Assembly (NCBI GenBank): GCA_039587755.1
Contig: JBDHBD010000009.1
Span: 62 to 64,061, forward strand
Direction of reading: 5' to 3'
DNA from: Gemmatimonadota bacterium
Lineage (GTDB): Bacteria > Gemmatimonadota > Gemmatimonadetes > Palauibacterales > Palauibacteraceae
DNA: 64,000 nucleotides
Made by a program: the position numbers and the translations under genes. Shown piece after piece: positions 4,949-5,676 of this stretch (position 1 is the stretch's first letter; each line of letters opens with the position of its first letter). The notes under the pieces were generated by a model. It was not told where the DNA came from and did no database searches. It was given only the letters and a program-made list of their open reading frames with translations.

Positions 4949-5398
4949 CTACGTAACTTCGGGCGTGACCACCGTGAACGATTCGTGTCGTGTCAGGATC
5001 CGCCAACGTTGATCACCGTACACCCAGACCACTGACCACACACCCTGGAGATCCGTGCGAGAGCCACTCGTATCGGTGGAACCCCAACGAAACGATGCTG
5101 TCACAGCCGCCGCATCGGCGCTCAGCACGTCAATCCGCATCTGATCCCATGACCCGATGTTCACCTCGGCGAGAGTCTCATAGAACGCTTCCACATCAGC
5201 GCTGAGGGACTCAAAGGACGGGTAAAGAAATCCATTGCTGACTGCCGTCGCGTCGGGCAGGTAGTGGCTCAGTGCCGTCGCAGCGTCTTCCGCATGCAGG
5301 TGATCTGACATCGCGGTTCTTACGCCCTCCTCGATCTTCGCCACCTCTTCGATCGAGAGATCTGAAGGTACTCTCTTGCGCGAGGACTGCATCCTCAT
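4949..5398 (-). CDS. SnoaL-like / DUF4440 (NTF2-fold) protein
   Basis: C-terminal 149 aa of the 202 aa ORF. Start taken at MRMQSS (ATG 5398), which overlaps the TGA of the upstream CMD gene (ATGA). The tail GVWSVVWVYGDQRWRILTRHES is typical of the NTF2-like cone. Confidence 0.7.
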   Translation of the reverse strand: MRMQSSRKRVPSDLSIEEVAKIEEGVRTAMSDHLHAEDAATALSHYLPDATAVSNGFLYPSFESLSADVEAFYETLAEVNIGSWDQMRIDVLSADAAAVTASFRWGSTDTSGSRTDLQGVWSVVWVYGDQRWRILTRHESFTVVTPEVT

Positions 5399-5676
5399 GG
5401 TTCGGACTTCGTCCCCCGGGCTCGCACTTCCCGCACTTGCGCTTGAATCCTCCCTGCCGCGACCGCCATGACAATCGCCTGAGCTGCGCCAATCTCGTCT
5501 TCGGCCATTCCTTGCTCCCTGGCTACGCCAAGGTAGTGTTCCATTCACGGATAGCACGCAAAGGCCATCGCCGACGCAAGGTGAAGCAGCAAAGTGGTTT
5601 TCGGGTCCAGAATCTCGTTCTCACGGGCGGACCTGTAGAATCGGCCGAAAGCTGCGTTCTGTTCCCTCGGGAGCAT
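5395..5676 (-). CDS. carboxymuconolactone decarboxylase (CMD)/AhpD-like protein with an in-frame TGA at codon 44. Either a candidate selenoprotein (CxxU) or a nonsense-disrupted gene.
   Basis: Not in the ORF track; both halves are under 60 aa. My translation: MLPREQNAAFGRFYRSARENEILDPKTTLLLHLASAMAFACYP[TGA 5545-5547]MEHYLGVAREQGMAEDEIGAAQAIVMAVAAGRIQAQVREVRARGTKSEP*. AAGGAGG lies 7 nt before ATG 5676. The pattern LDxKT..L..La.a.a..CxxCxxxH...A...G.t.eEI is the CMD core. The TGA sits where the second Cys belongs. The terminal TGA overlaps the next ATG. Confidence 0.6.

Follow-up and report, generated by a model that had tools for sequence, protein, structure and literature searches.

A predicted CMD/AhpD-type selenoprotein gene with a compact SECIS hairpin in a Gemmatimonadota contig

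Does an in-frame TGA inside a small bacterial gene end its translation, or is it read as selenocysteine (Sec)? The question is raised by a stretch of 64,000 nucleotides (nt) from a Gemmatimonadota bacterium (NCBI GenBank assembly GCA_039587755.1, contig JBDHBD010000009.1, positions 62 to 64,061 of the forward strand), which was analysed over its full length, has a G+C content of 65.5% and is called the window below. On its minus strand, between positions 5676 and 5395, lies a reading frame for a protein of the CMD/AhpD type, and a TGA stands in this frame at the place of the second Cys of a CxxC motif. An earlier inspection of the letters alone, here termed the sequence-only reading, had proposed a hidden CMD-family gene and a candidate selenoprotein at this place. 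Our comparisons indicate that the gene very probably encodes a CMD/AhpD-type selenoprotein, in which the TGA at 5547-5545 would be decoded as Sec by means of a selenocysteine insertion sequence (SECIS) element whose position had to be corrected. This assignment is favoured because the TGA is conserved across phyla, the sequence downstream of it is under coding constraint, a covarying hairpin follows it, and the synonymous sites in the stem of that hairpin are frozen.

Conservation of the TGA and of the frame behind it

The coding sequence 5676-5395 starts with an ATG at 5676-5674, passes through the predicted Sec codon at 5547-5545 and stops at a TGA at 5397-5395. It has 43 sense codons before the internal TGA, ending in A-F-A-C-Y-P, and 49 sense codons after it, beginning with M-E-H-Y-L-G-V-A; the terminal TGA shares bases with the ATG (5398-5396) of the next open reading frame (ORF), forming an ATGA overlap. 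When the internal TGA was read as Cys, the product matched the Pfam CMD family PF02627 with 33.7 bits (gathering threshold 23, E 3.6e-8), residues 8-75 being aligned onto profile positions 5-72 of 84. Positions 5676-5395 of the minus strand carry an intact gene, missed by annotation, whose product is a 93-residue single-domain protein of the CMD/AhpD fold. The sequence-only reading was right about this hidden gene and about its layout, since the AAGGAGG located 7 nt before the ATG at 5676, the 49 codons behind the TGA and the ATGA overlap can all be read directly from the DNA.

Comparison DNA consisted of 80 related loci from named assemblies, all of them metagenome-assembled genomes (MAGs), and one metagenome locus, making 81 loci (numbered with the prefix L). 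They sample at least 10 phyla, including Gemmatimonadota, Acidobacteriota, Desulfobacterota/'Deltaproteobacteria', Chloroflexota, Fidelibacterota, Zixibacteria, WOR-3, Ignavibacteria, Bacteroidota, Nitrospinota and others. The orthologues in the 80 MAG loci were 56-87% identical to the window protein, the best one being that of L002 from Gemmatimonadota (87%). As had been proposed for the window, the TGA coincides with the second Cys of the motif throughout the family: 78 of the 81 related loci contained TGA at this position and three contained TGC, the latter (L050, L059 and L063) all belonging to Geobacter or Geobacteraceae MAGs. Chance falls far short of explaining this placement. Among 82 sequences of close relatives, the Sec form outnumbered the Cys form by 79 to 3, and eight Gemmatimonadota MAGs retained the TGA form together with an intact hairpin. 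The column of the first Cys (Cys41) was invariant in the family alignments, and database proteins (numbered with the prefix P) with CYPC at the motif (P0007, P0009-P0011 and P0013-P0023) formed a Cys/Sec pair with the window TGA. One part of the proposed motif did not hold. The His of C-x-x-C-x-x-(x)-H had been taken as conserved; it was present at the third residue after Sec (U+3) in only 58 of 77 family members, the others having S, E, N, D or A.

No extra in-frame stops were found in the aligned core of 77 genes. Averaged over columns, the entropy at codon positions 1, 2 and 3 was 0.71, 0.36 and 1.53 bits in the upstream half and 0.55, 0.27 and 1.57 bits in the downstream half, and the window gene differed from that of L002 by 18 synonymous and 9 non-synonymous codons. 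By these measures, the half after the TGA evolves as translated sequence, with purifying selection acting on both halves.

The same codon has left its mark in public protein sets. The 62 relatives obtained by a protein search fell into two classes, full-length proteins of ~90-130 residues and short fragments; about 40 short database 'proteins' of 51-61 residues either start at the Met behind the stop (MEHYLGV...) or end at ...CYP. When 1.84 billion cluster representatives were searched with a profile, 53 of the 150 best matches ended at profile position 43 and another 30 of the same 150 started at position 45, making 83 halves broken at the Sec column. As these representatives share less than 50% identity with one another, the same break recurs in dozens of lineages. 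The exact 49-residue C-terminal half of the window gene had no record as a called gene. Other full-length entries show Trp at the Sec column (CYPW in P0001, P0003-P0006, P0008 and P0012); these are artefacts of gene calling with genetic code 4, because the terminal TGA is read as Trp too, as in P0004, which continues '...GMDDW...' versus '...GMDD' and a stop in L018. One entry, P0002, has Leu at this column. The family is thus systematically mis-annotated in public protein sets, as 43-residue and ~50-residue halves or with Trp at the Sec position, because none of the curated NCBIfam models reaches its cut-off for this stand-alone subfamily. In the window, the annotation can be corrected, and a region that had no usable ORF call becomes a complete selenoprotein gene.

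A covarying hairpin behind the UGA

The RNA from the UGA onward was aligned for 76 distinct sequences without any gap. With the U of the UGA numbered 1, a 7-bp stem of nt 15-21 and nt 25-31 encloses a triloop G22-U23-N24 at a fixed position, the loop beginning 18 nt after the UGA. In the window, the 5' arm is CCUUGGC (5533-5527), the triloop is GUA (5526-5524) and the 3' arm is GCCAGGG (5523-5517). Standard pairs occupied 99.1% of the cells across the 76 sequences, and four of the seven pairs had changed on both sides, with 38 compensatory cells; pair 2 occurred as C-G (42), U-A (30) and U-G (4), and pair 5 as G-C (71) and A-U (5). None of 500 column shuffles matched the observed paired fraction, the number of double-change cells or the covariation score, and sliding the 3' arm by one to three columns brought pairing down to 16-57%.

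This hairpin differs from the stem that the sequence-only reading had put forward, in which 5533-5529 would pair with 5514-5510. Those arms are complementary in the window; across 76 orthologues, however, they were paired in 81.6% of cases versus 81.4% in shuffled alignments and showed no covariation, and this stem was rejected as the SECIS in favour of 5533-5527 with 5523-5517. The idea of a downstream SECIS therefore stood in part: the 5' arm is common to both structures, and the 3' arm had to be replaced by its actual partner at 5523-5517.

The bacterial SECIS (bSECIS) model, as outlined in a 2026 review (PMC13188914, Fig. 2 legend), has a loop of 3-9 nt, an upper stem of 4-16 bp and a G among the first two nt of the loop (G[G|U]), with 16-37 nt from the UGA to the loop and a minimum free energy (MFE) of -7.5 kcal/mol or lower. 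All four published criteria agree with the window hairpin, which has a 3-nt loop, 7 bp, G followed by U, a distance of 18 nt and a free energy of -9.4 kcal/mol when folded alone (-11.2 kcal/mol in context). Energies of -7.5 kcal/mol or lower were obtained for 77 of the 79 UGA-form sequences.

Codon choice in the stem is almost fixed. Leu at +5 was encoded by CTT in 43 of 43 cases, versus 17% of the Leu codons elsewhere in these genes, and Phe at the same position by TTT in 33 of 34. Likewise, Gly at +6 was GGC in 66 of 72 (background 34%), Ala at +8 was GCC in 71 of 75 (background 33%), Tyr at +4 was TAC in 74 of 76 (background 50%), and Arg at +9 used AGR only (22 of 22). In the loop codon (Val at +7) the third base was free to vary, as was the Gly codon at +12. 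Across the seven SECIS codons, third-position entropy was 0.71 bits, compared with 1.57 bits elsewhere downstream. Such frozen synonymous sites in the stem point to selection on the RNA, not on the protein alone. The SECIS signal is a short local hairpin, visible by comparison only. With 7 bp, a triloop and clear covariation, it is a very compact element and a good test case for SECIS prediction.

Decoding of the UGA and competing explanations

In the proposed mechanism, the UGA at 5547-5545 would be decoded as Sec by SelB and Sec-tRNA(Sec), which would be recruited by a minimal SECIS within the coding sequence, namely the 7-bp hairpin with its G-U-N triloop 18 nt after the UGA. Translation would then proceed through 49 further codons to the TGA that overlaps the start of the next gene. 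A selenoprotein gene implies that the source organism uses Sec; we infer Sec insertion in this organism, and likewise the redox chemistry and the physiological partner of the product.

Several observations weigh against this assignment. Genes for selA, selB, selD and tRNA-Sec were not found in the 64-kb window by tblastn with E. coli SelA, SelB and SelD and by ARAGORN, and the same search over ~1.1 Mb of related loci found none either; with such small slices of each genome, this absence counts neither for nor against Sec decoding in this organism. The window yielded no further selenoprotein gene. Rfam at its gathering thresholds gave no match in the window, and the MFE of the 71-nt region as a whole was no better than that of shuffled sequences (z -0.34). 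Constraint on the peptide Y-L/F-G-V-A-K/R could account for part of the hairpin's conservation, and the hairpin is retained in the nearest Cys form, P0010, where one G-C has become G-U and the energy is -8.5 kcal/mol. Finally, we infer function from the fold, the motif and the neighbours in other genomes.

The hairpin cannot be folded from distant Cys-form homologues (...YLGQ...), whose forced energies are 0.2 to 4.3 kcal/mol. P0010 (L082-L085) shares the peptide MEHYLGVAK with the Sec forms, and its gene follows one that is ferredoxin-like and possibly hgcB-like; its hairpin is probably a fossil SECIS left by a recent change from Sec to Cys. A scan of the window for in-frame TGAs with high G+C content at third codon positions on both sides gave nine candidates, none of which had a redox motif, and most of which resemble ordinary junctions between genes in the same frame. 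Indirect evidence on decoding comes from the eight Gemmatimonadota MAGs that keep the TGA form and from other related loci. In L031, L039, L050 and L059, all from Geobacter or Geobacteraceae, the neighbouring hgcA carries an in-frame TGA in an upstream extension, KPPCUGP, a feature of HgcA described by Haft (bioRxiv 10.1101/2022.07.06.499078), and the hosts of these four loci therefore decode Sec. L031 and L039 contain two adjacent selenoprotein genes, hgcA and the CMD gene; L050 and L059 have Sec in HgcA, yet the Cys form of the CMD protein. ARAGORN also reported a 91-nt 'tRNA-Ala (cgc)' at 32140-32230 on the plus strand. It lies within a 473-residue ORF (31900-33321, minus), has no Rfam tRNA match and is probably a false positive.

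Could the UGA be passed without selenium? A near-cognate insertion of Trp or Cys, or a reassigned code, with a hairpin that merely slows the ribosome, would fit the database entries that give Trp at the column, and Sec machinery was not observed in the window. The Trp entries are, however, the code-4 artefacts described above, and the window gene itself ends in TGA, so the organism uses TGA as a stop, which argues against a reassigned code. The aligned residue in homologues is Cys, giving the hallmark Cys/Sec pair, and the G-U of the loop is the signature seen in SECIS elements that bind SelB. We consider selenium-independent readthrough very unlikely.

Another explanation takes the UGA as a true stop followed by a restart at the adjoining AUG, the resulting 43- and 49-residue peptides assembling into the CMD fold. 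An AUG does stand directly after the UGA in 70 of the 77 family members, and gene callers routinely give the two halves as separate proteins. In the Cys forms, however, the same C-M dipeptide lies within a helix that runs on without a break, which makes the Met ancestral and not a start signal; CTG, GTA or GTC takes the place of the ATG in seven of the 77 Sec forms. The bases TGC TAT CCG before the UGA contain no ribosome-binding site, and a restart leaves the covarying hairpin with its G-U loop at a fixed 18-nt distance unexplained. Such a split gene is extremely improbable. A recent TGC/TGT to TGA nonsense mutation in a Cys-type CMD gene, with its downstream half untranslated, was the plain alternative kept by the sequence-only reading, and it retains hardly any likelihood: the TGA is one base from TGC or TGT and Sec machinery was not found in the window, but close relatives have TGA and not TGC or TGT, the TGA recurs in 78 of the 81 loci from many phyla, neither half accumulates stops or frameshifts, purifying selection acts on the downstream half just as on the upstream one, without any additional stop (with the 18 synonymous against 9 non-synonymous differences from L002), a covarying hairpin with frozen synonymous sites follows, and the break at the Sec column in dozens of lineages cannot be explained by a nonsense pseudogene.

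Neighbours, fold and known relatives of the selenoprotein

The features of the locus are collected in Table 1. The local minus-strand array contains a NifU/HesB-like gene, an ATP-grasp ligase, two genes without assignment, a PNPOx-like gene, the YdjM-like gene, the selenoprotein gene, the SnoaL-like ORF and small membrane ORFs. The CMD gene, a 102-residue membrane ORF and the PNPOx-like gene are common to the window and L002, and the SnoaL-like downstream ORF is not kept beside the CMD gene in L002. An identical copy of the ATP-grasp protein of the window is present in two NCBI assemblies (GCA_039590015.1 and GCA_039584515.1), whose accessions belong to the series of the Gemmatimonadota MAGs. 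Between 2999 and 4918 on the minus strand, five successive small ORFs of 82-213 residues have no Pfam match; the one at 4918-4610, whose product is a hydrophobic membrane protein rich in Gly, is linked to the CMD gene in L002 as well. The ORF 4949-5557 on the minus strand (202 residues, GTG start) is the SnoaL-like frame extended back over the selenoprotein gene and is not a gene; owing to the conserved nucleotide sequence, matching shadow ORFs occur in L003, L047 and L073. The neighbour ORFs grouped as 'cluster 0/16' were rejected as genes for the same kind of reason, being frame shadows of the CMD gene.

Table 1. Coordinates of the predicted selenoprotein gene, its signals and the flanking ORFs in the window
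Feature	Position	Strand	Basis
Shine-Dalgarno sequence AAGGAGG	5684..5690	minus	read from sequence; 7-nt spacer to ATG
CMD/AhpD-type selenoprotein coding sequence, predicted, 93 residues	5395..5676	minus	translation, Pfam, orthologues
TGC, Cys41, resolving/partner Cys of C-x-x-U	5554..5556	minus	invariant column in alignments
In-frame TGA, predicted selenocysteine codon, residue 44	5545..5547	minus	TGA column conservation; fragment break points
Bacterial SECIS core, predicted	5517..5533	minus	covariation, folding energy, frozen synonymous sites
Downstream ORF, 149 aa, weak SnoaL-like/DUF4440 match	4949..5398	minus	Pfam scores below gathering thresholds
Upstream ORF, YdjM-like membrane protein, weak match	5700..6353	minus	PF04307 20.5 bits, cut-off 29

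In other genomes, the neighbours are of a different kind. Genes were counted within 5 kb of the CMD gene in the 81 related loci. ArsM (NF008823, 333 bits, cut-off 263) was found in 13 loci, in every one of which its gene immediately precedes the CMD gene on the same strand, 26-162 nt away, and HgcA (NF040863, 414 bits, cut-off 275) in eight loci with a gap that is mostly hgcB-sized. ArsR-type regulators were present in 12 loci, Acr3 in six and ArsP in five, and about 30 of the 81 loci contained at least one of ArsM, ArsR, HgcA, Acr3 and ArsP. A second, Cys-type CMD protein was encoded nearby in six loci. Two Anaerolineales MAGs (L037, 44-3050; L055, 8631-11597) carried arsR, arsM, the Sec-form CMD gene and hgcA in one same-strand array. 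The stand-alone gene after arsM is the unfused counterpart of the ArsM-AhpD fusion selenoproteins, and the partner in many other genomes is probably the arsenite methyltransferase or the HgcAB pair. A different neighbourhood was seen in L033, L060, L069, L072, L075, L077, L078 and L079 (Desulfobacterales and delta-proteobacterial MAGs), where a DDAH/amidinotransferase-like gene accompanies the CMD gene; seven of these eight loci (not L077) also contained a Cys-rich 127-residue protein without a Pfam or NCBIfam match.

No match to ArsM, HgcA, ArsR, Acr3 or ArsP was obtained anywhere in the window by tblastn of the neighbour families, so the link to metals and metalloids is a property of the family elsewhere and not one shown for the window copy. 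Because of the adjacency to arsM and hgcA in other genomes, the arrays of arsR, arsM, the Sec-form CMD gene and hgcA, and the natural ArsM-AhpD fusions, we tentatively suggest, as a possibility rather than an expectation, that the stand-alone CxxU CMD family may be an overlooked third component of the ArsM (arsenic) and HgcAB (mercury) methylation systems, a dedicated partner that acts as a selenol-based reductase or handles metalloids, recycling their catalytic cysteines or delivering As(III)/Hg(II), and that the window copy may have been recruited to a different partner. The adjacency, which belongs to other genomes and not to the window, suggests a role of selenium in arsenic and mercury methylation. 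A link of the stand-alone protein to arsM or hgcAB was not found in the open-access full texts searched, which is weak evidence of novelty. The stand-alone subfamily without an NCBIfam model, the dominance of its Sec form and the arsM/hgcAB adjacency appear not to be covered by the literature consulted.

The fold was modelled on the closest full-length Cys homologue, P0010, for which an AlphaFold model with a predicted local distance difference test score (pLDDT) of 86 was used. This model has four predicted helices, 4-18, 25-39, 42-54 and 59-94, with the motif residues 41-44 at the start of helix 3. In the window protein, C41-Y-P-U44 would accordingly sit at the N-terminal end of the third of four bundled helices, where AhpD-type proteins have their CxxC. 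By analogy with these, C41 and U44 could cycle between a reduced thiol/selenol form and a selenenylsulfide, and the product is most likely a thiol/selenol oxidoreductase. The top fold matches were all CMD/AhpD structures, with a template modelling (TM) score of 0.66 for 3bey and, for the more distant Mycobacterium tuberculosis AhpD, a TM score of 0.60 with E >0.6. The best match in both sequence and fold is 3bey (O27018, Methanothermobacter), a stand-alone protein of ~96 residues with six chains in the entry, whose CxxC aligns with the CxxU of the window protein. The helical CMD/AhpD fold is common to it and to RclX (7y4r), TM1620 (1vke/1p8c), TTHA0727 (2cwq) and M. tuberculosis AhpD (1knc/1gu9). 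These five solved relatives have Cys instead of Sec and share 15-26% identity with the window protein.

The window protein does not conform to a strict AhpD alkylhydroperoxidase, which is defined by CxxC, a conserved His/Glu relay and AhpC as the partner. The relay of M. tuberculosis AhpD is not conserved in the window family and, as His at U+3 is limited to the members counted above, is not a family feature; no AhpC-type gene was found among the annotated neighbours in the window.

Among curated selenoprotein families, NF041047, the 'GSU3128 family (seleno)protein' described as a 'distant AhpD homolog', is also a small stand-alone AhpD-like protein with CxxU (84 positions); the window protein scored 34.1 bits against a cut-off of 110 and belongs to a different subfamily. 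Its best NCBIfam matches were the AhpD domains of two larger proteins, both carrying CxxU: the C-terminal domain of NF045649, MduS or 'methyltransferase domain-containing selenoprotein' (43.7 bits, E 1.6e-11, cut-off 380), and that of NF041537, the 'arsenite methyltransferase/AhpD domain selenoprotein' ArsM_AhpD_UU (39.4 bits, E 3e-10, cut-off 510). The window protein has no methyltransferase domain, and since its scores are far below both cut-offs, it is an unfused relative of these families and not a member.

CMD-type selenoproteins have also been listed in surveys. The Sargasso Sea selenoproteome names a 'CMD domain-containing protein, Pfam02627, CXXU' and an 'AhpD-like protein' (PMC1088965), the Global Ocean Sampling (GOS) survey lists 'AhpD-like 2, pfam02627, CxxU' with 70 sequences (PMC2398784), and a table in the 2026 review contains a 'CMD-like protein' and several AhpD-related entries, the ArsM/AhpD fusion among them (PMC13188914). 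In the passages of the surveys consulted, neither a covariation analysis of the SECIS nor an arsM/hgcAB neighbourhood is reported for the CMD selenoproteins. As described there, the CMD and 'AhpD-like 2' selenoproteins share with the window protein the Pfam domain, the CxxU motif with Sec in second place, the small stand-alone size, Cys homologues and a SECIS directly behind the UGA. The class of CMD/AhpD-type CxxU selenoproteins has been known since 2005 (PMC1088965, PMC2398784), and the window gene adds a member to it.

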